This document shows positions 11,315 to 22,395 of a stretch of 24,094 nt of DNA, in pieces. A program made the translations under genes and the position numbers. How positions within the stretch are numbered: the first letter of the stretch is position 1; the number at the start of each line of letters is the position of its first letter. The notes under the pieces are model-generated. The model did not search any database. It was not told where the DNA came from and saw only the letters and a list, made by a program, of their open reading frames with translations. The stretch comes from a virus (Duplodnaviria; Caudoviricetes): IMG/VR virus record IMGVR_UViG_3300017909_000129, positions 1 to 24,094 of that record. One strand, 5' to 3'.

Positions 11315-12070
11315 TTATTGTGAAGCATATTCTTCATCCATATAAACAATAACAAAATCACCAGATACACCATCTGTACTTGAGGAAGTTTTCGCTCTAA
11401 GCTCTATATCACTCTTTTCTGTAGCGACTATTGGCATTGATAAATCCACAAATACGTTTGTATTAGCAAAAGTTGTTATATATTTTGTTGCAAAAACACC
11501 ACCAAATTCTCTTATTGCCATTCTACCAGTAACAAATTTATTTAATGTAGAACTACCAGTTGATAATTGTAAATTATATATATAAGCAGTATGATTTCTT
11601 GGAACTGTCCATAATGCCATTAATGTTTGATTGTCGCCAATAGTAATTGTTGCATATTTATTTGCTGGGACTCCTGCAGTTACAGTACCAGTTCCTGCAT
11701 AAATAACTCCTGCGTTTTGCTCACCAGTTCCTGCAGTTTTAACAATAATACGATTAATTCTTATATATTCATTAGTCGTATTGACTGCTGTTTGTCCATT
11801 TAAGGTAACTGTTTCTGATATCTCGTCATAGTTACTATCTAAACCACTTAATAAAACTGTTCTTGCTCCAGTTCCTGCTGACGCATCATTTGTATTAGAA
11901 CTTGAAACTTTTAAAATACTTGCTGATGATAAATAGGAATAAATACCACCTTGTGACCATATTGTTTCTTCATCCGTACCTACAGTTGGATTATAGCCAA
12001 ATTTAAATAAGCCTTTTTCTTGAACTAGGCTTCTTCTTATTTGCCAACCGTATTTGGAATCAATCGTCAT
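11315..12070 (-). CDS. Uncharacterised Thr/Ser/Gly-rich putative virion protein (251 aa)
   Basis: KFGYN...ETIW...SSS..D..AGTGARTV...GLD.NY.EI.ETV.LNG pattern; beta-rich composition; coupled (ATGA) to the upstream ORF. Confidence 0.55.
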   Translation of the reverse strand: MTIDSKYGWQIRRSLVQEKGLFKFGYNPTVGTDEETIWSQGGIYSYLSSASILKVSSSNTNDASAGTGARTVLLSGLDSNYDEISETVTLNGQTAVNTTNEYIRINRIIVKTAGTGEQNAGVIYAGTGTVTAGVPANKYATITIGDNQTLMALWTVPRNHTAYIYNLQLSTGSSTLNKFVTGRMAIREFGGVFATKYITTFANTNVFVDLSMPIVATEKSDIELRAKTSSSTDGVSGDFVIVYMDEEYASQ

Positions 12071-12561
12071 TTTTTAGCCTTTAAAGGATGTCCTTCTGGC
12101 AATAAATCTCTATCAAATTTACCTTTTCTGTATTTTCCAGTTCTAACTGCAAAAAGAAAAGCATTTACACGAGCAATCGCCCATTGTTCTGGACCCATAA
12201 CTGTTCTTCTTACACTTTCTGGATTGGTTCTATAAGCACCAATGCCTCTATTAAATACTTTTTCAAGCATAGAACGAGTGACTCTTTTTCCTTTTTTATC
12301 ACCATGCTTTTCATTATGTTCTTTTACTTTATTATTTATTGTTTCTTGCATTCTTGCAGAAAGTTTCTTTTCTTCTTTTTGATTGGTTACTCTTAGATAA
12401 ACACCATGTGTCTCACAGGGCATATAATAATTTCGCTCTGGACCTTTTATAGTATGATGCCCAGAACAACCTAATTTATCTGCTCTTGCTCTTGCTTGTG
12501 ATACTGACGTAAAAACATCTCGCCCCTCCCCAAATCCTGGGTCTTGCTCCATTTCATTCAC
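12067..12561 (-). CDS. Two-module hypothetical protein (DUF3721-like Cys/His module plus basic helical module); start uncertain
   Basis: N-module FT...QA..RA..LGC.G.H......YMPC..H; C-module L..VFNRGIGAY.T.P...R.....QWA.ARVNAF. GTG start without a clear SD. Confidence 0.6.
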   Translation of the reverse strand: MNEMEQDPGFGEGRDVFTSVSQARARADKLGCSGHHTIKGPERNYYMPCETHGVYLRVTNQKEEKKLSARMQETINNKVKEHNEKHGDKKGKRVTRSMLEKVFNRGIGAYRTNPESVRRTVMGPEQWAIARVNAFLFAVRTGKYRKGKFDRDLLPEGHPLKAKK

Positions 12562-12596
12562 AATTCTTCTGAGCGTACCAACTAATTCTTTCTACA

Positions 12597-13034
12597 TTAA
12601 ATGCCGTCCTTTACGTCTTTACTAAACATATTTTTATATTTTTTTTTTCCTTGCTCTAATGCAGGCTGTAAAAAAGGTCTTGCTTGCATATGTCGTGTAC
12701 CAAATTCTAAAGCCTCTGAATATTTGGCTCTACTTTCTACTGAAGCACCTAATTGATCTGCATCTACAATAAGATGTATATTACTAGATAAAAATCCAGT
12801 ATCACTTGCAGGTGGATCGCCTTCCTTAGATATTCTTATTGTTCTTTTTGGATTATATCGTGTAACAGTATCACCTGCTCTTGGATTCTGATTTATACTT
12901 GTTATTGCTACGTTTCTTACCTCATTCGCAGAAACTCTTACTGTTTTTTTAAGATTTGAAAGTACGTTCTTAATTTTTAAATCAATCTTACCTTCAAATT
13001 CATTTTTATTAACAACTTTAAATTTAAGTGTCAT
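12597..13034 (-). CDS. HK97 gp10-like neck/tail-component protein (145 aa)
   Basis: S..G.PPASDTG.L..NI, Y...LEFGT..M.ARPFLQPALE motifs. Confidence 0.9.
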   Translation of the reverse strand: MTLKFKVVNKNEFEGKIDLKIKNVLSNLKKTVRVSANEVRNVAITSINQNPRAGDTVTRYNPKRTIRISKEGDPPASDTGFLSSNIHLIVDADQLGASVESRAKYSEALEFGTRHMQARPFLQPALEQGKKKYKNMFSKDVKDGI

Positions 13035-13392
13035 CTACTGCTCCTTCTGAACACTTAAATATAAGAAATCTATCTCGTTCACCTACATCAATTACAGACT
13101 TTACTGATAAAAACCTTGTAACACCACTATCTGACCAAGATATTCTCATTTTACCCCCACCAGATTTAAAATTTATATTTGAATAATATCTTGTATAAAC
13201 TTCATGTGTAATTGGATTTTCAAGTCTGCCTGCCTCAAAGTTTTCGTTTCCTAACTTTGGTACAACTTTAGCCATTAATGTTCGTCTGTCATTGAATGAT
13301 GAGGTATAACCTCCTCCAGTATCTGTAGAGGTTCCTCTGGTTTGTAGTGTTACAGAGTGTCTTAAATCGCCTATATATGGATATTTAGCCAT
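13024..13392 (-). CDS. Head closure / head-tail joining protein (SPP1 gp16-like, 122 aa)
   Basis: IGDLRH.VTLQ, D.GGG, THEV.TRY, MRI, V..VID..ER..FL...C.E; position after the adaptor. Confidence 0.85.
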   Translation of the reverse strand: MAKYPYIGDLRHSVTLQTRGTSTDTGGGYTSSFNDRRTLMAKVVPKLGNENFEAGRLENPITHEVYTRYYSNINFKSGGGKMRISWSDSGVTRFLSVKSVIDVGERDRFLIFKCSEGAVDDT

Positions 13393-14054
13393 TAGCCTAA
13401 GCCTATTCCAAACCTCATATTTCTAAAAGGTTTCCATAACGAATTTACAAGAGTTGGAATTGTGGTTACACTTTCTCCTCTTATTGTCATTTCTGGATTT
13501 TCAAAATAATGTGATGCTAAAACTATTATGCCTTGCTTTATAGCTGATGGTACATCACTGGCACTTGAACCATATCCTGCAACATAGGTAATTTCTATTG
13601 CATTTGCTACCCTAAGCATATCATCCCAAGTTTCTCCAGTTCTGAGAACAACTCGCCCATAATCACTAGCAGTATCTACATAATAACGACTAGATGCCAT
13701 TGTGGTTTCTGTATCGCTATCATCAAATGTTTTTACACTAGATACACTTACCAAAGGACTAAATGGCAAAGATACACTTCTCTGTCTATATTCCAAAAAG
13801 GGACCAGTAGTAATACCTTCTTTATTTGGAAGTATGGAATCAGAATAAGGTATATTATCAAGTGAAAGTTTTAAAGTTCTATTTATTAGGGATTTTTGTA
13901 AGTATTCTTTTGCCACACTTATTGATGCATCTTTACAGACACCAATTTGTGTATCGTGAGTGGTATCATCACTTGCTATTCTTAAATTTGCTTTTACTTG
14001 TGCCGTGGTTACTACATCAGTTGTTTCTGCAGTAACTACTGTGATACCAGCCAT
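13392..14054 (-). CDS. Head-tail adaptor/connector (HK97 gp6 / GTA g6-like, 220 aa)
   Basis: VK.NLRI..DD, LP.SPL.SV.SV, I.ITY.AGYG.....VP.AIKQ.I..L..HYFEN motifs. Confidence 0.88.
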   Translation of the reverse strand: MAGITVVTAETTDVVTTAQVKANLRIASDDTTHDTQIGVCKDASISVAKEYLQKSLINRTLKLSLDNIPYSDSILPNKEGITTGPFLEYRQRSVSLPFSPLVSVSSVKTFDDSDTETTMASSRYYVDTASDYGRVVLRTGETWDDMLRVANAIEITYVAGYGSSASDVPSAIKQGIIVLASHYFENPEMTIRGESVTTIPTLVNSLWKPFRNMRFGIGLG

Positions 14055-14061
14055 TTTTCAC

Positions 14062-14376
14062 CTACTTACTTTTTTTTATAGTCTTTGTAGGTGCTTTTCC
14101 ACCTTCCCATGCTTCATTTACATCTTTTGTAGCAGGGTTATCAGCTTTTAAAGTACCATCTGTATTTCTTGCTCTTTTTATTTCTGTTGGGGAATCAACT
14201 TTAGTTTCTTTTCCACCACCAATTTCTTCTGCCCAACCTTCATTAATAAATACTTTCGCAATATTTACTTGCCATAATTCATTCATCTCGTAGATTTCAC
14301 CTTGAACATAATCCATACCAATATTTCCAAGAGCATTTGAACTTGCATGGGTTGTTCTTGACATTTTTATTCTCAT
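14062..14376 (-). CDS. Hypothetical head-associated protein (104 aa)
   Basis: SD AAGGAG; short beta N-domain (G.IY.......A..FI..GWAE) then RARN.DG...ADNP.T.DVNEAW and a Lys-rich tail; lies between decoration and adaptor genes. Confidence 0.6.
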   Translation of the reverse strand: MRIKMSRTTHASSNALGNIGMDYVQGEIYEMNELWQVNIAKVFINEGWAEEIGGGKETKVDSPTEIKRARNTDGTLKADNPATKDVNEAWEGGKAPTKTIKKSK

Positions 14377-14391
14377 TAGAAACTCCTTAGA

Positions 14392-14423
14392 AAGTATGCC
14401 CTCAAATTAATGAGGGCATATTT
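14392..14423 (-). terminator. Intrinsic terminator/attenuator after the capsid and decoration genes
   Basis: Perfect 10-bp stem TATGCCCTCA (14395-14404) / TGAGGGCATA (14411-14420), 6-nt loop, followed on the minus strand by a short CTTTCT tract; usual position separating high-copy from low-copy virion genes. Confidence 0.75.
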
Positions 14424-14427
14424 AAGA

Positions 14428-14889
14428 TTAACCAGTTGAAGAACCGTTATCAGAACCACTTGCAGGTCTATGAGTTGGCATAGTAATACCAACAACCCCT
14501 ATAGGTGTTCCGTTTGTGTGAGTTCCTGTCTTGGTGCAAGCAATTCTTGCATATCTCTTAGGTCCTACATAACCTATTGGATAAGAAGCATCATCCTCTG
14601 CTGCAGCATCAATAGTCGCATATATGCCACTACTATCTACATCAGCAAAAGTAACAAACTTATTATCTGTTACTGCAGAGAAAGAAGAATTATCATCACT
14701 ATCTTGTAGGATTAAATCCCACTTAACAGAAGATGATAATGTATCTCCACTTTCACCAACTAATACATTAAACATAGCACCGTTTGTATTGGCAGTATCT
14801 AGTCCACTTGTATTTGTTGTAGCAGTTAAGGTTGCAGGGTCTAACACTTGTGTCATTGCTAGATTATTAGCTAAATCTTTTGTCGCCAT
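14428..14889 (-). CDS. Capsid decoration/cement-like protein (153 aa)
   Basis: Directly after the major capsid gene and before the terminator; LQDSDD..SF..V and IGYVG.KRY.R motifs seen in jelly-roll decoration proteins; SD AAGGGAG. Confidence 0.65.
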   Translation of the reverse strand: MATKDLANNLAMTQVLDPATLTATTNTSGLDTANTNGAMFNVLVGESGDTLSSSVKWDLILQDSDDNSSFSAVTDNKFVTFADVDSSGIYATIDAAAEDDASYPIGYVGPKRYARIACTKTGTHTNGTPIGVVGITMPTHRPASGSDNGSSTG

Positions 14890-14903
14890 ATTCTAATCTC
14901 CCT

Positions 14904-16127
14904 TTAAGCTGATACAGTTTGAGTTCTAATCGCTTCAGCAATTATTACTTGTCCACCCAATCTCTTTCTTGCTACATAACGGATTGTTCCGCTTGTTGCT
15001 TGAGTGAATGGGTCTCTAAGAATTGCTAAATTGATTCTGTCTACAATCATATAACCTCTGTTAAAATCACCAAAGGCTACTGGCTTGTTTCCTGCTCCTA
15101 CATCTGGCATATCTGTTGCCTCAATGTAAGGTTGTCCAAGAATAGTGTTTGGTACACCAACTTGTAAGCTAAATCCTGCTTGGAAAACATAAGAACCATT
15201 TGTGTCTTGTAATTGTCTTATCTTACCAAGAGTTGATCTATTGAAAACAAATACACCATTTCTGGCATACTCAGTCTTAATTGCAGAATAAAGGTCAATT
15301 AAACCATTAGCTGTTAATGCAGATGCCGCACCTGAGTTTGTAGTTGCAACATTTGAATTTGACATAAAGCCTTCTGGTCTGCCTGCACCACTTCCGTTAA
15401 CAAAAGCAGTTCCTTCAGCTACTGCAAATTGCATTGCAAATTCTGCTGAAAGTTCTGATTCCATATTGAAAGCTGAGTCCTCAACATCTTGCTCTGTAAT
15501 ATCAACAAGTGCATATAACTCATGTGCAGTAATTTCTTCCATTCCATAAGTTAAACCAGTTGTCTCTGACCTTGTGCCAGTTTCTGAAACAAATGCTGCA
15601 GAAAAAACACCAGTTCTTGTTGGTACTTGAACACTTCTGTTTGATGTTGTTCTTACTCTAGCAATAGTACGAATAGGTGACATTTCTGTAACCTTTTTCT
15701 GAATCTCAGCAACGTACTCTGGTGGAGCAAGATATCCACCACCAGTATCATTAGATACTGTGAGAACCTTATGTTCCATTTCATCTAAAGACTCCTTACC
15801 TTTTCTGAGGTATTTGTCATAGGCTTTTAATTTGAAATCAATTTCTTTTGTCTCAAATCCTGCCTCTGGTCTTTTGATTTCAGTTTCAATTTTGTCCATT
15901 CTGTCATTTAACTTCTTGGACTCCATCATCTCTTTAGTGAACTTTTGGTTCACATCCTCAAGTGCATCTAACTTTGACTCAATCTTAGATAACTTATCAT
16001 CTGTAATTGGGTCTGAAGCACCTTTGGACTCTAGTTGCTCAAGACGTTCATTATTAGCATTTTTGAAATCTTCAAATGTTGTTCCAAAATCCTCAATGAC
16101 ACCTTTAAGCTCTTGTAAATCAGCCAT
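14904..16127 (-). CDS. Major capsid protein, HK97 fold, with N-terminal delta (scaffold) domain (407 aa)
   Basis: About 120-aa coiled-coil N-terminus, GGYLAP.E, SPIR.IA, E..AFVNG.G...PEG, ILG.P.....DMPD, AFGDF.RGY.IVDR, RDPFT, KR.GG; strong SD AAGGAGG. Confidence 0.97.
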   Translation of the reverse strand: MADLQELKGVIEDFGTTFEDFKNANNERLEQLESKGASDPITDDKLSKIESKLDALEDVNQKFTKEMMESKKLNDRMDKIETEIKRPEAGFETKEIDFKLKAYDKYLRKGKESLDEMEHKVLTVSNDTGGGYLAPPEYVAEIQKKVTEMSPIRTIARVRTTSNRSVQVPTRTGVFSAAFVSETGTRSETTGLTYGMEEITAHELYALVDITEQDVEDSAFNMESELSAEFAMQFAVAEGTAFVNGSGAGRPEGFMSNSNVATTNSGAASALTANGLIDLYSAIKTEYARNGVFVFNRSTLGKIRQLQDTNGSYVFQAGFSLQVGVPNTILGQPYIEATDMPDVGAGNKPVAFGDFNRGYMIVDRINLAILRDPFTQATSGTIRYVARKRLGGQVIIAEAIRTQTVSA

Positions 16128-16139
16128 GCTGACCTCCTT

Positions 16140-17012
16140 TTACTTGTTAGGTTTAAATTTAGCCATTAAACCTTTCATTGATTCAATAGCTTCGCTTACA
16201 TCAAGGTCATCTCCAACATCTCGTTGTTTTGAGATTATATCCATTATGCCTTTGGCACAAACCTTACTTAATGAACGGCTCAACCCACAGTCCTCACGAA
16301 AATGAGTTTCCCAGTCACGAATAGTCCTTGTAAAGGCATCTTTTACTTGCTGAACCCTAGCCTTTGGGTTCATTGGAAAAGTTACAAGGCTAATTTCCAT
16401 CAAATCCACTTCTTTTAGCATTCTTCTTCTACGTCTTTCGTCATAGCTTTGCTTTTGTGGATCTGCTTTATATCCGATTGATAATCCATCTAATGCACCC
16501 ATTTTTAGTAGTTCGTATGCTTCCCTACCTTGCTGAGTGCCTAAAGCGAGTTTACCTTTTACTCTTAAACCATCGCCATCTTCTTTAATACTTTCAAAAA
16601 CTCCAATTGGCATATCTTGCTTGTGTTGCCATAATAATTTTATACCTTTAGCCTTTTTAACTCTAAGACTTTTGCTAAATGCACCATCTTCAACTACATC
16701 ATTTCCTAAATCTTTATTTCCAAAGATAGAACCATATCCTTCAAATTTTCCATAAGGCTTTTTATCATCATCATCGTCATCATCATGATATGCTTTTATT
16801 TCACAATTTGGTAAATATATATTGCCAGTATATATATCGTCTTTGGTTAATTCTTCAGTATTCATCTCTGCTCCCTTTCCACTAAATAAATTGGAGCATA
16901 CAGCAAACCTTTGTTTGGCATCTGGATATTCAGAACGACTTTTATCGTCAGACATACATCTTGACATAAAATCTTGTCTGCTCTCGTTAGCATTTGGTTT
17001 TACTAAAGGCAT
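16140..17012 (-). CDS. Prohead protease (HK97 gp4 / peptidase S78-like) with N-terminal extension (290 aa)
   Basis: FEGYGSIFG..D...D.V..GAF, LLWQH (His), GLSIGY (Ser), EISLVTFPMNP; preceded by a two-Cys module and an Asp7 linker; second SD+ATG at codon 50. Confidence 0.95.
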   Translation of the reverse strand: MPLVKPNANESRQDFMSRCMSDDKSRSEYPDAKQRFAVCSNLFSGKGAEMNTEELTKDDIYTGNIYLPNCEIKAYHDDDDDDDKKPYGKFEGYGSIFGNKDLGNDVVEDGAFSKSLRVKKAKGIKLLWQHKQDMPIGVFESIKEDGDGLRVKGKLALGTQQGREAYELLKMGALDGLSIGYKADPQKQSYDERRRRRMLKEVDLMEISLVTFPMNPKARVQQVKDAFTRTIRDWETHFREDCGLSRSLSKVCAKGIMDIISKQRDVGDDLDVSEAIESMKGLMAKFKPNK

Positions 17013-17017
17013 TCCTT

Positions 17018-17046
17018 ATAATATATGCTAATTTATTTTATGTAAA
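17018..17046 (-). promoter_or_regulatory. Candidate sigma70-type promoter giving a leaderless mRNA for the protease-capsid operon
   Basis: Minus strand: TTTACA (17046-17041)-17 nt-TATTAT (17023-17018)-AAGGA-ATG (17012). Confidence 0.6.
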
Positions 17047-17099
17047 TAGAAAAAGACGACAAAAAATATGGTTTTGACCATAAAAAACTCTTTTAAGTA

Positions 17100-17129
17100 G
17101 TTTACTTCTTCATTTAGATAGTATATAAT
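17100..17129 (+). promoter_or_regulatory. Strong sigma70-type (early-like) promoter of the plus-strand cassette
   Basis: G-TTTACT (17101-17106)-17 nt-TATAAT (17124-17129, perfect -10); A-tracts upstream; SD GGAG at 17154-17157 before ATG 17165. Confidence 0.8.
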
Positions 17130-17164
17130 GAAAGTATAAATATATTTTTAAACGGAGAAACAAA

Positions 17165-17524
17165 ATGAAAACACAATTATCAAAGAACATAACTGGTAGA
17201 GGTTTCTACAGAGATTATGTAAACAAAGCACCTCACCCAACAAATATACATTTTATATTTGAAAGAGGTCTTTCTAAGTCACATTTTTATGGTTGGAATA
17301 CAGATGTACCAGCTTGGGATATCAAGTTTACTCTTGATGGTTCTAATTATGAAAATGTTGGGGTTATAACAGTATTTGCAGATGGTGTTAAAGGTTCACT
17401 AGATGATACTACAGACACATTGTTAGATGTTTCTGGTAAAGACCCATTTGAGTTATTTGTAGAATTAGTAAACAAAGCTGATTTTGCAAAGTTGGAAGAT
17501 AAATTTTTTCATAAGTTTTATTAA
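17165..17524 (+). CDS. Hypothetical protein, first gene of the inverted cassette (119 aa)
   Basis: Promoter and SD upstream; no family recognised. Confidence 0.75.
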   Translation: MKTQLSKNITGRGFYRDYVNKAPHPTNIHFIFERGLSKSHFYGWNTDVPAWDIKFTLDGSNYENVGVITVFADGVKGSLDDTTDTLLDVSGKDPFELFVELVNKADFAKLEDKFFHKFY

Positions 17525-17536
17525 TAGGGGGCAAAA

Positions 17537-17926
17537 ATGATAAACTTTACAACACAAACTGAATATCAAGGTTCAAATGTAGCAGAATTATTAGCTGAAG
17601 GCTTTCCAATGGGTTCAGAGTTTTGTACTTTTAAGCAAGCAGTACAATATTACAACCTTACTGGTAAAGAATTAGCAGGTGCTAAATCATGTGCTACACT
17701 TAGAAAGTTGGTAACTAAAGATGAAATCAAAGATGGTAAGAAAATTAAAAAGCAAGTAATGAGAGCATTTCGTGTTTTTGAAAAGAACCATCTTATAGAA
17801 ACTATGCTTAAAAATGGTCATGCACCTTTTGAGGGTACAGACGAGCAAGAGTATAATGCAGACATTGAAGCATACGATATTGGTAGTTACTACTGTAATC
17901 AACTTCTAGGAAAGGGTGGGGTTTAA
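17537..17926 (+). CDS. ArdC-N (DUF1738)-like ssDNA-binding domain protein with acidic tail (129 aa)
   Basis: N.TT...YQG.N...L, F.TFKQA, G.K, F.VF motifs in the order seen in ArdC N-terminal domains; SD AGGGGG. Confidence 0.65.
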   Translation: MINFTTQTEYQGSNVAELLAEGFPMGSEFCTFKQAVQYYNLTGKELAGAKSCATLRKLVTKDEIKDGKKIKKQVMRAFRVFEKNHLIETMLKNGHAPFEGTDEQEYNADIEAYDIGSYYCNQLLGKGGV

Positions 17927-17935
17927 CCCCTCCCT
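17913..17935 (+). other. GC-rich RNA hairpin over the stop codon of 17537..17926
   Basis: AGGGTGGGG-TTTAA-CCCCTCCCT (8 pairs, one mismatch), immediately followed by SD AAGGAG of the next gene; no U-tract on the plus strand. Confidence 0.5.
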
Positions 17936-17946
17936 AAGGAGTTATT

Positions 17947-18138
17947 ATGGATAATTTATACACAAGAAAAATAATGCTTAATACTGCAAGACACTACAAC
18001 GTAATGAAAGAATATTGGGGTATATATAGAGAACTCAAAGAGATTTACGGAGATAGTGATTCTGATGCATTTGTTAATGCTATGAAACCAAGATTAAGAA
18101 AAGTAATAGAAAAACAAATAGAAAGAGAAAGAAGATGA
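17947..18138 (+). CDS. Small hypothetical protein (63 aa)
   Basis: SD AAGGAG; ATGA overlap with the next gene. Confidence 0.7.
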   Translation: MDNLYTRKIMLNTARHYNVMKEYWGIYRELKEIYGDSDSDAFVNAMKPRLRKVIEKQIERERR

Positions 18139-18368
18139 CAAAAGAAAAAATTACAAGAGCAGAGGCAGAAAACCTTGTTTCAACAAGAGGTTTTACTTGG
18201 GAGCAGATAAATGAGATGTTTGATGTTACCAGTAATCCACGCAGTTATACATTTACTGTAGAGAAAGAAAGGCAGTTTGCCATAAAAGTATTAAATGTAA
18301 TTTCTAATCTATCTTTAAGGGAAAGAGAAAGAGTATTGCAAAGAGCCATTAAAGTTAATAAAGTTTAA
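18135..18368 (+). CDS. Small basic hypothetical protein (77 aa)
   Basis: Coupled to the upstream gene (ATGA); ends just before the convergent hairpin. Confidence 0.7.
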   Translation: MTKEKITRAEAENLVSTRGFTWEQINEMFDVTSNPRSYTFTVEKERQFAIKVLNVISNLSLRERERVLQRAIKVNKV

Positions 18369-18382
18369 TTATACTCCCCTTG

Positions 18383-18412
18383 TAACCCTCATTATTTATT
18401 TGGTGGGGGTTA
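18383..18412 (+). terminator. Hairpin between convergent transcription units
   Basis: TAACCCTCATTA-TTTATT-TGGTGGGGGTTA: 12-pair stem including three G-U pairs that form only in plus-strand RNA; weak U-tract. Confidence 0.6.
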
Positions 18413-18661
18413 ATATATTCTTGCTTCTACATTATTAAGCATATCCAAAATATCTTCAGTAAATAATTTTCTTTCTTGTCTTAGTGCAGTTTTAAGCAAT
18501 ACCTCATAATTAGAAAGTATATTTCCTTTTGTATAATCTACATTAATTGGTAAAAGTTCATAAGCATTTTTATATTTCTTATTATATGTATTTAATAGTT
18601 CGTTAACTGCTTTATCATCTATAAATTCTTGCTCTAAATAAAACTCTGGGTTAGTTGCCAT
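18410..18661 (-). CDS. Small protein downstream of MuF-peptidase; candidate immunity/partner protein (83 aa)
   Basis: Overlaps the MuF 3' end by 11 nt; GGAG and AAGG elements upstream; helical, no known motif. Confidence 0.55.
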   Translation of the reverse strand: MATNPEFYLEQEFIDDKAVNELLNTYNKKYKNAYELLPINVDYTKGNILSNYEVLLKTALRQERKLFTEDILDMLNNVEARIY

Positions 18662-20507
18662 CTACCTTACTCCTTAATAATTCTGCCATACCATCAATAT
18701 CATTTCTTTGATATAGCTCAAATAATTCATCAAACGATTTGGTCATATTAGGTGCATACATTTTCATTAGTTTTTTAAATACTTTGGCTCTTTTACCTCC
18801 TATAAGTGCTGTATAATTTGCCATTGCTTCAGTTGTATGACCTATGCTTACACCTCTTTCAACTTTATAAAACTGACCATAATACGATTTACCATGACCA
18901 AAACCAATCTTTGCATTTGATATTGCTTCAAGATAATCAGAAAAATAAAGCATATCATCATTAAAAAGATTTACACCTCTTGTTTCAGTTAAGAAACTTT
19001 TAATATCATTATTTCTCAAGTATATTGCCATTCTTTTGAGCTTTATTTGTTTCATTTGACCTAACTGCATCTGATTCAATAATTGCCCATCTGCTAATTC
19101 ATTTAAATCATCAAAATCTAATCCAGTTCCTTTAAATTCTTTATTAATTATATCTTTTGTTTCCATATCGTAATCTGCTTTTCTAAGCTGACCAGTTGAT
19201 ACAAATTCTAACTTTCCATTTTTATCTCTTTTAACTCCAGTTAAACCAAATTTTGACATATCTCTATTTACATTTTTACCGATATCGTCCTTATCAAATT
19301 TCTTTTGGAATTTTCTATCTTTTAAAACATCTTTACTTAAATACCCAGAAATGTAATCAAGACCCTTATATTTATCTGGCATATCAAAATAAATGCCTTT
19401 ATCTTGCATTTTAGTCATAATATTACTTGAATTATCTGTATCCATAACATGACCCACTTCATGTCGCCATGTAGTTTTTCTATTTCCAACATCTAAATGT
19501 TCCAATATATCTGATTGTGATGCACTTCTGGCACCCATACCTATTTCGTTTCTGTCAGCATATGCTCTGCCAACTCCATATTTAACTTTTATTGGTTGTA
19601 TATATTTAATTGTTTTAAATGGTGTTGATGAACGATTCCAATCAGCATTTTCTTGAAATAATAATTCATCTTTATTTGTTTGACCAAAAGGATTAACTGG
19701 CTCTGGTATTGGTTTTTGTGCAGTATTTTCATCCACAACAAAATCTTCTGGCTCTATATATACAACTACACATCTACAATTTATAACTTCAGATGCTCCA
19801 CCTTTTGGGTCTCCTGCATACTGCATCTCTTTTCCACCAACTATAAATGGGTCATCTATAGATACAGTTTGCCCATTTGCTTGATTATGTGTGCTTCTTG
19901 TTCTTGGGTCATTACTTGAAACCCATCTTTTCTGCATACTAGGTTCTTCAAAGTTTCTGGCTTGAGCATGAATTGCAAAAGATGATACTGTATGTGTTTC
20001 TGTTCGTGCAATAGTATTTGCCCTAGCTCTCGTAAACCGTGGACTCATTCTTTCATTAATTGCATTAGCAATAGCACCTACACCTTCATCTCTATTGGCA
20101 AGTATTGTATTAGCTATTATTTCTCTGGTTGTTTCTGATATCCCTACTATTCTTACACCACCAAGTGTTTTCATATATTGCGAGTAGATGAGGTCGTAAT
20201 CTTGTGTCGCTTTCTGTGCCATTCTCTGAGTGAACATTCTCTGGGCAAATGTTTTGATGCAGTCCATATAAAATGGCTCAAGAACGGACTGAATATTAGG
20301 CAATATACGTCTACTATAGACTTCAAAGCCTTGTAGACCACCGTTAATATACGAATTACTGGCATCAGAGCCAATTTGTGAAAAAGTGCGAATTAACCTA
20401 AAGTTAAGATTCCTTTCGTACCCTTTTCTGAGTCTGTTTACCTCTCTGTATTCCTTCCTCACAGAGATTTTTTTCATTCGTTGTTTGAATTGTAGATTTG
20501 TTTTCAT
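18651..20507 (-). CDS. MuF / SPP1 gp7-like minor head protein fused to a C-terminal zincin-like metallopeptidase (618 aa)
   Basis: MuF motifs RA.TIARTET, K.W....D.RTR.TH...NGQ, F.VGG, P.G...EVINCRC (to about residue 250); then HEVGH (349-353), GHG.SYY and TEAMAN (E560). Confidence 0.88.
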   Translation of the reverse strand: MKTNLQFKQRMKKISVRKEYREVNRLRKGYERNLNFRLIRTFSQIGSDASNSYINGGLQGFEVYSRRILPNIQSVLEPFYMDCIKTFAQRMFTQRMAQKATQDYDLIYSQYMKTLGGVRIVGISETTREIIANTILANRDEGVGAIANAINERMSPRFTRARANTIARTETHTVSSFAIHAQARNFEEPSMQKRWVSSNDPRTRSTHNQANGQTVSIDDPFIVGGKEMQYAGDPKGGASEVINCRCVVVYIEPEDFVVDENTAQKPIPEPVNPFGQTNKDELLFQENADWNRSSTPFKTIKYIQPIKVKYGVGRAYADRNEIGMGARSASQSDILEHLDVGNRKTTWRHEVGHVMDTDNSSNIMTKMQDKGIYFDMPDKYKGLDYISGYLSKDVLKDRKFQKKFDKDDIGKNVNRDMSKFGLTGVKRDKNGKLEFVSTGQLRKADYDMETKDIINKEFKGTGLDFDDLNELADGQLLNQMQLGQMKQIKLKRMAIYLRNNDIKSFLTETRGVNLFNDDMLYFSDYLEAISNAKIGFGHGKSYYGQFYKVERGVSIGHTTEAMANYTALIGGKRAKVFKKLMKMYAPNMTKSFDELFELYQRNDIDGMAELLRSKVDGN

Positions 20508-22395
20508 CTCTTGCTTTCATAATCTGATCTCGCTTTCTTTTAGAGAATGCAAAACCTTCATCTCCACCCCATAAATCCCAAGCGATTCTCCCATTACTAG
20601 GAAAACCTTTTTCTCCTTGTCTAAAGCCTTCTGCTCTTTTATCTACCTCGTGTCTTGAAAAAAAGGAATACATTCTTAATATTGTTGATTCTGATAAATT
20701 TTCCTTATTTACGAGTTGTCTTGCTCTGGCTAAACCAACAGCAGTTCCCCCTCTTTTAAATTCTTTTCTCCATTCTAATGCCCTCCTTGCATTATCAGCC
20801 ATCGCTGATGTAGGTTGAAATGTTAATCTTTTTTCCTCTTTAGAGAAATTAAGTGATTCACCTTCTGGCATAGCTTCCCACTTTAAACACCAATATTCGC
20901 CTCTTACTATTGCATCAAACTTTGTACAATATAGTTCTTTATGGTCTTTAAATTCACTCTGCATCTCTTGTTCTTCTTCTGGTTTACCCAATCTTACATA
21001 TTTACAGTTTTGGCATTTATATGTATTTGTAGAATAAGAATAGGCAGGTGGTAAATTACTGTCCACTTCTTCTCCATCTGGATATGTATCCAATTTACTC
21101 CCATAAGCATCTTCGTATAATCTTTTGGCTACATCATCATTATTAGATGTTGGTGGCTCAGGAACCTCGCTTCCAAGTGGAAATAGATTTGCACCAATAT
21201 AAACTTCATCACCACCTTTAATTGGCTCAAGACCTAATCTTTCTCTTGCTTCATTTCTAGTTATAATACCTTTATCAACTGCTGTAATTACATTATCGTA
21301 TATCATTCTACGTCTTTCAGTAATCGCAGGGATATTATCTATATCATATTTTAACTCTAAATCCTCTCCATACATTGGTACAAGCCATTCATTTAAATCA
21401 CTTTGTATATGCTTTAATAGAGGAATAATAGTTTCTTCATATAATGCTAATCTTGCTTCTGCCATATTAGAATATGTTTGACTGTCTGGAATACCTACTA
21501 ATTGTGCAGGAACCCCAAAACATAAAGCAATATCTCTTGCACTAAAGTTTTTCATAGATGCAAAATCCATATCTTTAGGTGTAAGACCCATTTCCTTATA
21601 GTCAAAATCACCTTCAAGAATTAATGTTCTGCCACTATTGTTACTACCTTCAAATCTATGTTTTAAATCTGCTCTGAGCATTTCTCTCTGACTATCTGAA
21701 AGCATAGTCATATTTCCTGCTTCATCTTTTGGTTTATAGACAACTGCACCACTTGGTCTTGCACCATTCATAAGTAACATAACATTATGTCTGTTGGATA
21801 AATTATGTTGGTCAATATCAGTAGATGCTGCCTTTAAAGGACTTAATCCATAATAATCATCTAAAGGATTAAATAGTTTTATTTGCTTTACATCACTTTC
21901 GCCAGTACTGGTATTAACTTCATATTTTGCACTTACTTGCCCATTTACAACATATTCATAAGCCATTGGTATCATTCGTTGACTTGGGACAATTCTCATT
22001 CTATCTGGTCTCATAGTGTACAACTCTTGTGGCATACCTTCGTCCGGACCAGTTTTAAGCAAATAACTATTTCCACTTAATAAAAGATAAGAATAAACAA
22101 TCTGAAAAAACTCTGATTGACTACACATTGGATTAGGTCGCTCTAATAAATCCAAAAGTGGGCTATCTTCTATTGGTTGGTCACCTCTAAATAAATTAAA
22201 TTTTACTGCAGATGCTCCGTTAGCAATTTCATTAACACATCTAAAAACAATTGCATTATCTTGGTAACCATCTTTGGCTAAATCGCTATAACTCATTTTT
22301 GGTTGTGTTTGTGTGCCAACATTAGAATATGCGATCATTGGACTTTGCTTTACTTGGTTAATAAACAAAGCCTTCCATGCTTCTTTAAATCCCAT
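20404..22395 (-). CDS. HK97-family portal protein with long modular C-terminal extension (663 aa)
   Basis: N.IVFRCV..IA, LL.RPNP, LL.GN.Y, D.YGLSPL, NGARPSG, GLTPKDMDF, IA..FGVP, TYSN, IT.NEAR..LGL.P..GGD (core ends near residue 400); SD AGGAG. Confidence 0.95.
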   Translation of the reverse strand: MGFKEAWKALFINQVKQSPMIAYSNVGTQTQPKMSYSDLAKDGYQDNAIVFRCVNEIANGASAVKFNLFRGDQPIEDSPLLDLLERPNPMCSQSEFFQIVYSYLLLSGNSYLLKTGPDEGMPQELYTMRPDRMRIVPSQRMIPMAYEYVVNGQVSAKYEVNTSTGESDVKQIKLFNPLDDYYGLSPLKAASTDIDQHNLSNRHNVMLLMNGARPSGAVVYKPKDEAGNMTMLSDSQREMLRADLKHRFEGSNNSGRTLILEGDFDYKEMGLTPKDMDFASMKNFSARDIALCFGVPAQLVGIPDSQTYSNMAEARLALYEETIIPLLKHIQSDLNEWLVPMYGEDLELKYDIDNIPAITERRRMIYDNVITAVDKGIITRNEARERLGLEPIKGGDEVYIGANLFPLGSEVPEPPTSNNDDVAKRLYEDAYGSKLDTYPDGEEVDSNLPPAYSYSTNTYKCQNCKYVRLGKPEEEQEMQSEFKDHKELYCTKFDAIVRGEYWCLKWEAMPEGESLNFSKEEKRLTFQPTSAMADNARRALEWRKEFKRGGTAVGLARARQLVNKENLSESTILRMYSFFSRHEVDKRAEGFRQGEKGFPSNGRIAWDLWGGDEGFAFSKRKRDQIMKARDENKSTIQTTNEKNLCEEGIQRGKQTQKRVRKES

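Follow-up and report, generated by a model that had tools for sequence, protein, structure and literature searches.

Swappable folded modules on HK97-type head proteins have joints that match the predicted capsid maturation residue and may be cargo freed by the prohead protease

Prohead proteases of the S78 family are thought to act inside proheads, and phage T5 trims its portal. According to the available passages of the source papers, HK97 gp4 and the S78 protease T5 pb11 cleave after lysine (PMC13517437), the HK97 site being K103/S104 (PMC10275583). The passages at hand on T4 and SPN3US describe one protease motif that marks many head proteins, the portal included (PMC10052503), while small basic internal proteins of T4 are packaged and injected, as described in part in PMC5512222; in the same excerpts, Iyer et al. 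(2017) report variable domains fused to MuF and portal proteins and propose their release by peptidases, assemblin-like ones included (PMC5512222). Here we analyse IMG/VR record IMGVR_UViG_3300017909_000129 over its whole length of 24,094 nucleotides (hereafter the window), a 24-kb contig of 34% G+C with a siphophage-like head-tail operon on the minus strand, which is best represented in seawater and salt-marsh runs. An initial annotation had proposed that small modules appended to its head proteins are released by the prohead protease at Glu-x-Lys (E-x-K) sites, for DNA condensation or injection. Comparison with related loci suggests, with a probability that we put at roughly 0.6, that these modules are protease-freed cargo of the phage head.

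Portal, protease and capsid of the window all belong to HK97 families by Pfam and TIGR profiles, which points to an HK97-type head; the S78 protease gene adjoins the capsid gene, and an N-terminal delta (scaffold) domain and an HK97-family portal are likewise present. Attached to these proteins, or in a free-standing gene, are a four-Cys module resembling high-potential iron-sulfur proteins (HiPIP), an unnamed helical module called P2, a two-Cys module, and modules matching DUF3721 and DUF5824. Profile searches of 461 loci and the window recovered more than 60 module architectures, in which P2, the DUF5824-like, DUF3721 and HiPIP-like modules and a Tudor module shift among portal, protease, capsid, MuF and free genes, confirming the expected swapping among relatives with several carriers per module. 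Counts of carriers refer to dereplicated copies in viral and phage loci, in a sample that leans to window-like queries and in which the class without a recognised carrier is overcounted because Mu-type portals escape the portal profile. On this basis P2 (n=133) is found on the portal in 64 cases, on a protease-capsid fusion in 19, on the protease in 10, on MuF in 9 and on no recognised carrier in 31; the corresponding numbers for the DUF5824-like module (n=112) are 49, 23, 6, 6 and 28. DUF3721 (n=131) sits on the portal (75), the protease (38) or a fusion (4), with 14 unassigned, and the two-Cys module almost always sits on the protease (45/47). Among relatives, loci L006 and L017 have DUF3721 in the place of the Cys module, L215 and L224 have E-x-K at their Cys-module joint, and in the module-free L040 the portal terminates at the same core boundary as the window portal.

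In cultured phages P2 occurs on a protease-capsid fusion (CRP-701, S-CBS3), on the protease (phiPsal1, HGTV-1), on a head-region protein (DSL-LC01, Vibrio 1.214.O) or as a free gene (PaBG), and neither the Cys module nor the protease N-terminal module had a match among GenBank phages. In roseophage CRP-701 (L081:4518-7142), P2, the DUF5824-like module, protease, scaffold and capsid form one 874-amino acid (aa) polyprotein with Arg joints, annotated merely as a major capsid protein. Further unnamed modules of the pool, flanked by matching Lys or Arg, lie at L069:7306-7734 (~140 aa) and L082:4816-5046 (~75 aa).

Were the protease to cut at these joints, a given module would be expected to follow Lys in phages of one capsid junction type and Arg in those of the other. 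Capsid junctions were Lys-type in 162 loci and Arg-type in 71, leaving one untyped. Ahead of the DUF5824-like module, 36 of 37 Lys-type cases had Lys and all 25 Arg-type cases had Arg (Fisher p 1e-17), whereas an equal control window just upstream showed no match to type (p 0.48) and Arg-type control windows held more Lys than Arg (12 vs 8). On the N-terminal side of P2, Lys was present in 42 of 44 Lys-type loci (control 12/44) and Arg in the sole Arg-type case; on its C-terminal side, Lys-type loci had 22 Lys, 2 Arg and 14 neither (n=38), and Arg-type loci 25 Arg, 1 Lys and 6 neither (n=32). Joints matched type for the Tudor module (2/2 Lys-type, 5/5 Arg-type) and for DUF3721 (42/52 and 3/3), the latter in a window moved after a null result; the DUF3721 window used first showed no match, with 18 Lys and 34 Arg among 52, because it fell inside the module. 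By eye, the basic residue ahead of the protease core also tracks capsid type. The same inspection found neither Lys nor Arg ahead of P2 in phages with other proteases: DSL-LC01 shows Val-Ala-Ser, as at its own capsid junction, HGTV-1 shows Glu, and in three Mu-type portals the six positions preceding P2 lack basic residues. Mu-type portals (L123, P0047 and P0083) carry P2 and the DUF5824-like module at joints that are not basic and often lie close to Tyr-Ser or Asn.

Motif counts show the same matching. Lys-type scaffolds (n=51) contain 188 E-x-K against 95 expected and only 7 E-x-R against 25, and in Arg-type scaffolds E-x-R reaches 23 vs 8 where unfused (n=5) and 47 vs 28 where fused (n=22). 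When module linkers were compared with shuffles, E-x-K was enriched in Lys-type loci (85 vs 63 ± 7) and E-x-R in Arg-type loci (37 vs 18.5 ± 4) and the reversed motifs were not, so that the junction enrichment anticipated by the initial annotation holds for the matching motif only. Unbiased motif discovery in single polyproteins yielded nothing usable. The acidic residue is less constant than the basic one: position P3 is Glu or Asp in 32 of 36 DUF5824-like joints and in 18 of 42 P2 joints (Asp 12, Glu 6, other 24), and P1' is mostly Ala, Gln or Ser. The predicted rule is thus a P1 Lys with a loose acidic preference rather than a strict E-x-K code, and the earlier statement that E-x-K marks the module boundaries stands as regards type-matched basic joints and fails as regards strictness.

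All E-x-K sites that had been listed for the window are present. They lie at K8, K35, K52, K71, K85, K94 and K120 of the capsid, K349 (core), K483 (Cys-module loop), K522 and K633 of the portal, K73 of the protease, K59 and K67 of a 104-aa open reading frame (ORF) and K65 and K66 of a 164-aa ORF; portal K547, inside P2, was absent from that list. Two Lys joints of the portal have another form, G-S-K434 ahead of the first module and Q-V-K16 at the end of the leader, and K16 and K434 are likely further sites. Capsid residues 1-121 hold seven E-x-K against 2.8 expected from shuffles (p ~0.009), so this cluster is above chance, and their absence from the rest of the capsid is uninformative with 0.38 expected. 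Whole-protein counts are at chance for the portal (5 vs 3.7), MuF (2 vs 2.9), the protease (1 vs 2.1) and both small ORFs; the initial annotation had cautioned that E/K-rich linkers yield chance motifs, and its caveat about sites in the portal core and the HiPIP-like loop is correct (K349 and K483). The window alone would not carry the claim, because non-capsid counts are at chance; the relatives carry it. From 76 complete capsids in 80 loci and the window we retained 27 below 90% identity, all of which have E-x-K at the delta/mature junction (27/27), and their delta domains contain 154 E-x-K vs 61.6 expected, compared with 64, 103, 85, 45 and 35 for other spacings and 51 for K-x-E. The closest solved capsid, that of the Rhodobacter capsulatus gene transfer agent (RcGTA; PDB 6tb9), has an E-G-K that aligns with E-H-K120 of the window, and the mature RcGTA capsid presumably begins directly after this Lys. 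The available part of the structure paper (PMC7296036) contains no passage on cleavage at E-G-K.

We therefore propose the following mechanism. Modules fused to the portal, to the protease or to a leader-bearing free gene would be likely to enter the prohead with their carriers, where the S78 protease would cut them free after Lys while digesting the capsid scaffold; relatives with Arg junctions have Arg at the same joints. That the protease frees folded mini-proteins in the prohead is, judging from these sequence comparisons, probable. The freed modules, of 5-13 kDa and compactly folded, differ from the multiply cut scaffold and would be expected to stay in the head, although here we regard the odds as about even. 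As with the internal proteins of T4, the basic P2 and DUF5824-like modules might bind the packaged DNA, enter the cell with it and protect it early in infection; that they travel with and guard DNA is a tentative suggestion, although among the roles weighed here retention and DNA guarding rank first, at low odds.

The free-standing gene offers a possible clue to entry. The '164-aa ORF' of the initial annotation corresponds to a 176-aa gene in the closest relative (L001), which starts with a helical leader ending in E-M-K. In the window copy codon 2 is TAG and the leader Lys is Glu, but all three runs covering position 12592 lack the stop and all four runs keep the Lys codon, and the window leader is therefore a variant or an error. 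Positions 12526-12594 show about nine clustered substitutions relative to near-identical populations, reflecting a variant strain or read error. Scored with a profile of 48 protease C-terminal helices, seven of eight free-cargo leaders fell within the highest-scoring 5% of a background of 1,185 N-termini, and six of eight beat their own shuffles (p<=0.005); some relatives have no leader. The C-terminal part of the HK97 protease directs uptake of the protease, and the free cargo gene may copy this entry signal.

Several points weigh against our reading. Supported branches force only one independent contrast in the module tree and one in the capsid tree. The best DUF5824-like tree has five changes (bootstrap range 5-7) and does not reject a single Lys clade (approximately unbiased test, p 0.078); the best capsid tree has two changes, with 37 of 38 rows matching over divergent lineages, at least three of Lys type and two of Arg type. 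Since kin share labels, the Fisher p-values overstate the evidence. The capsid-typing rule was revised twice (an earlier rule that misread Lys-Arg junctions gave 36 Lys, 4 Arg and 1 neither vs 21/21 for the DUF5824-like module), the DUF3721 window was shifted after its first null result, and the DUF3721 control is also rich in Lys (37/52), making that comparison weak. Median G+C is higher in Arg-type than in Lys-type loci (0.475 vs 0.378), although K/(K+R) inside the DUF5824-like module is equal between types (0.50 and 0.53). E-x-K also occurs within modules, at K547 in P2 and K483 in the Cys module; the likeness of the leaders was spotted by eye before scoring; and copy numbers from 12 (portal) to ~415 (protease-capsid fusions, if T=7) fit no single stoichiometric role. 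Fusions, swapping and junction matching are what the loci display, and from these we infer cleavage, retention and the guarding of DNA. The argument rests on several unrelated modules that each cross types with the joint changed, together with null controls, and is read from sequence throughout.

The features of the window are collected in Table 1. The portal and MuF genes overlap by 104 bases (20404-20507), as in L006 and L017, and L075 has a fused portal-MuF. HExxH is present in 14 of 15 MuF homologues listed by phmmer, the remaining one being a truncated piece, and the MuF C-terminal domain had no Pfam, PHROG or named Atlas match. The initial annotation had counted this peptidase among the cargo freed at E-x-K, which we could not uphold: K451 and K459 both lie within the C-terminal domain and not at its joint, no Lys joint was found in the window or the listed MuF extensions, and these extensions start, by eye, past an acidic linker with no conserved Lys. 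The MuF-peptidase joint is thus likely to lie outside the cleavage code. The 104-aa ORF is a possible protease substrate: in 53 of 54 homologues E-x-K occurs <=26 aa past the domain end, and the tails contain 97 vs 58 expected, with K-x-E at 23 vs 59 and a charge gradient that may add to the excess. We found no Arg-type homologue of this ORF. Its Lys-rich C-terminal tail (14062-14210 in the window) is histone-H1-like in many relatives. Between MuF and the protease lie four small opposite-strand ORFs (17165-18368, plus strand) and one 83-aa ORF (18410-18661, minus strand); a 129-aa ORF there has a weak ArdC N-terminal match (E 0.004, below cut-off) and is a possible anti-restriction moron.

Table 1. 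Head-region features and appended modules in the window.
Feature	Coordinates	Strand	Evidence and remarks
Portal protein, 663 aa	20404..22395	-	PF04860 E 5e-78; TIGR01537 200 bits vs cut-off 112; short leader ending K16, HK97-type core, two C-terminal modules, 30-aa tail overlapping MuF start
HiPIP-like four-Cys module, portal residues 435-522	20830..21093	-	follows joint K434; release predicted
P2 module, portal residues 523-633	20497..20829	-	unnamed, basic, five helices, flanked by K522 and K633; release predicted
MuF protein with C-terminal HExxH domain	18651..20507	-	PF04233 residues 145-248
Prohead protease, S78	16140..17012	-	PF04586 E 5e-32; TIGR01543 120 bits vs cut-off 59; C-terminal amphipathic helix
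Protease N-terminal two-Cys module	16875-17012		followed by joint K73
Capsid delta (scaffold) domain, residues 1-120	15768..16127	-	seven E-x-K; predicted maturation site K120
Mature HK97-fold capsid protein	14904..15767	-	PF05065 E 6e-74, from residue 130; TIGR01554
104-aa ORF	14062..14376	-	small N-terminal domain, two E-x-K, optional short module, Lys-rich tail
Leader of free-standing cargo gene	12547..12597	-	resembles protease C-terminal helix; TAG at 12592-12594, window only
DUF3721 Cys/His module	12382..12546	-	PF12518 28.5 bits vs cut-off 27; Cys and His invariant
DUF5824-like basic three-helix module	12070..12363	-	after joint K65/K66; PF19141 31.8 bits vs cut-off 25; model pLDDT 90.8

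P2 and the DUF5824-like module give confident compact helical domain models, P2 with a predicted local distance difference test (pLDDT) score of 96.7. Structure comparison found no match at E<=0.001 for the DUF5824-like fold against pdb, and for P2 only generic helical bundles against pdb_via_wide (best Z 5.5), a result that excludes no family. Sequence searches of the PDB with both profiles returned no matches, and an Atlas search returned unnamed clusters only. P2 matches a segment of phrog_2859 (E 3e-31) and is abundant, with 3,896 clusters at 50% identity (E<=1e-3) and an estimated ~14,000 stored viral stretches. The Cys module follows the HiPIP pattern C-x2-C...C...W-C but itself has no Pfam or PHROG match; a similar module in phiPsal1 scores 16.1 bits on the HiPIP profile PF01355, under the gathering cut-off of 22. 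The two basic modules have median net charges of +6 (P2) and +11 (DUF5824-like). P2 is also found as a free bacterial gene of 100-120 aa and therefore works without a carrier; P2 and Tudor, separate genes in bacteria, are fused in phages. The bacterial two-gene unit of P2 and Hva1 Tudor is seen in L275-L320 (e.g. L292:9989-10554), with topoisomerase IB near in L292, L303 and L305. A scan of 91 proteins from bacterial P2 neighbourhoods, 90 of them from 134 candidates, gave topoisomerase IB near 3 of 23 loci and scattered stress and repair genes, which is too weak to call.

The main alternative, which we consider unlikely, is that the modules aid prohead assembly as nucleation, core or tether elements and are then cut off and expelled like the scaffold. 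That close relatives exchange them or do without them, as L040 does, and that P2 exists as a chromosomal gene with no head genes near fit such a role poorly, even though the modules sit on assembly-starting parts and cuts between neighbouring modules would give pieces small enough to exit. In the available passages on SPN3US, most cleaved propeptides exit the head, the 254-residue one of the portal being among those mostly cleared (PMC10052503), which counts for expulsion and against retention. Against expulsion, the modules are well folded and sites are scarce within them (19 found, 28 expected), but terminase has much the same deficit (23 vs 37).

We think it improbable that the modules work inside the infected cell, countering host stress or defences for instance, and borrow late head expression, with the sites serving clean trimming of portal and protease. 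The P2 of PaBG, a free gene among replication genes labelled 'putative DNA-binding protein' in GenBank (the PaBG paper does not name gp148), and the bacterial P2 genes, which in 19 of 80 genome loci have a separate Hva1 Tudor gene next to them, would suit this explanation. However, a recognised head protein carries 102 of the 133 dereplicated viral copies of P2 as a fusion, free cargo genes often have the protease-like leader, and the S78 protease presumably works within the prohead. Equally improbable to us is the absence of any cleavage, with joint Lys and Arg arising from shared ancestry, helix capping or base composition. The few independent contrasts, the G+C difference between types and the chance-level counts in the window would allow it; controls only two residues away lose the match, with Lys exceeding Arg even in Arg-type loci, whether Lys or Arg precedes a given module N-terminus depends on the host phage, and phages with other protease or portal types have neither residue (by eye). 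Finally, genome condensation by freed basic modules in the manner of a nucleocapsid, half of the earlier proposal, is very improbable despite their charge and the hundreds of copies in protease-capsid fusions such as those of CRP-701 and S-CBS3, given that DUF3721 and the Cys module are acidic and that the twelve portal-borne copies of 11-13 kDa would cover a negligible part of a tens-of-kb genome. Module swapping and protease-matched joints are thus what survives of the initial annotation, whereas the strict E-x-K code, MuF-peptidase release and condensation as a general role do not.

A broader and more speculative reading is that a mobile pool of nucleic-acid- and metal-binding mini-proteins rides on any head protein, with the local cut residue, in tailed phages of bacteria and archaea, and that P2 with Tudor is a DNA-protecting stress protein shared with bacteria and loaded into capsids, where it would shield the genome either within the particle or during entry. 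P2 is widespread yet has no Pfam family, solved relative or assigned function. Provided that the code holds, sequence would reveal virion cargo and protease specificity in small HK97-type phages, a group in which one does not usually expect internal proteins. Because Lys and Arg are also the residues at which trypsin cuts, routine virion proteomics would miss the joint sites; the cultured Arg-type phages CRP-701, S-CBS3 and phiPsal1 make the claim directly testable. Our literature search, which did not cover subscription papers or DUF3721 alone, found no account of these modules or of Lys/Arg matching, and a search for DUF5824 had no matches. In the CRP-phage paper (PMC12629253) protease, fusion and mass spectrometry are unmentioned, and we found no CRP-type virion proteome.

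Compared with HK97 gp4 and T5 pb11, the window has the same portal, protease and delta-domain capsid families, with cleavage after Lys in those phages; HK97 and T5 remove scaffold and short leaders, whereas here conserved folded modules that swap carriers lie between the sites and have an Arg-type counterpart. The proteases T4 gp21, which acts on IPI-III and Alt, and SPN3US gp245 are Glu-specific, belong to another family and mostly remove N-terminal propeptides of separately encoded proteins, unlike the S78 protease, Lys joints and module chains on structural proteins of the window. A possible counterpart of the removable T4 leader is the leader of the free cargo genes, which resembles the protease C-terminal helix, precedes Lys and may serve targeting. 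The modules resemble polyvalent proteins in that several variable domains share one virion-linked polypeptide, and the MuF-HExxH fusion of the window fits that kind, but polyvalent proteins carry enzymatic effectors, with MPTase, ART and PBECR among their known effector or LPD domains, and the available passages on them include neither a cleavage code nor these small modules (PMC5512222). Motif-marked head processing is established for T4 and SPN3US, and effector fusions with peptidase release have been proposed; what sets the present loci apart is the combination of swappable folded modules with Lys or Arg joints matched to the capsid junction.

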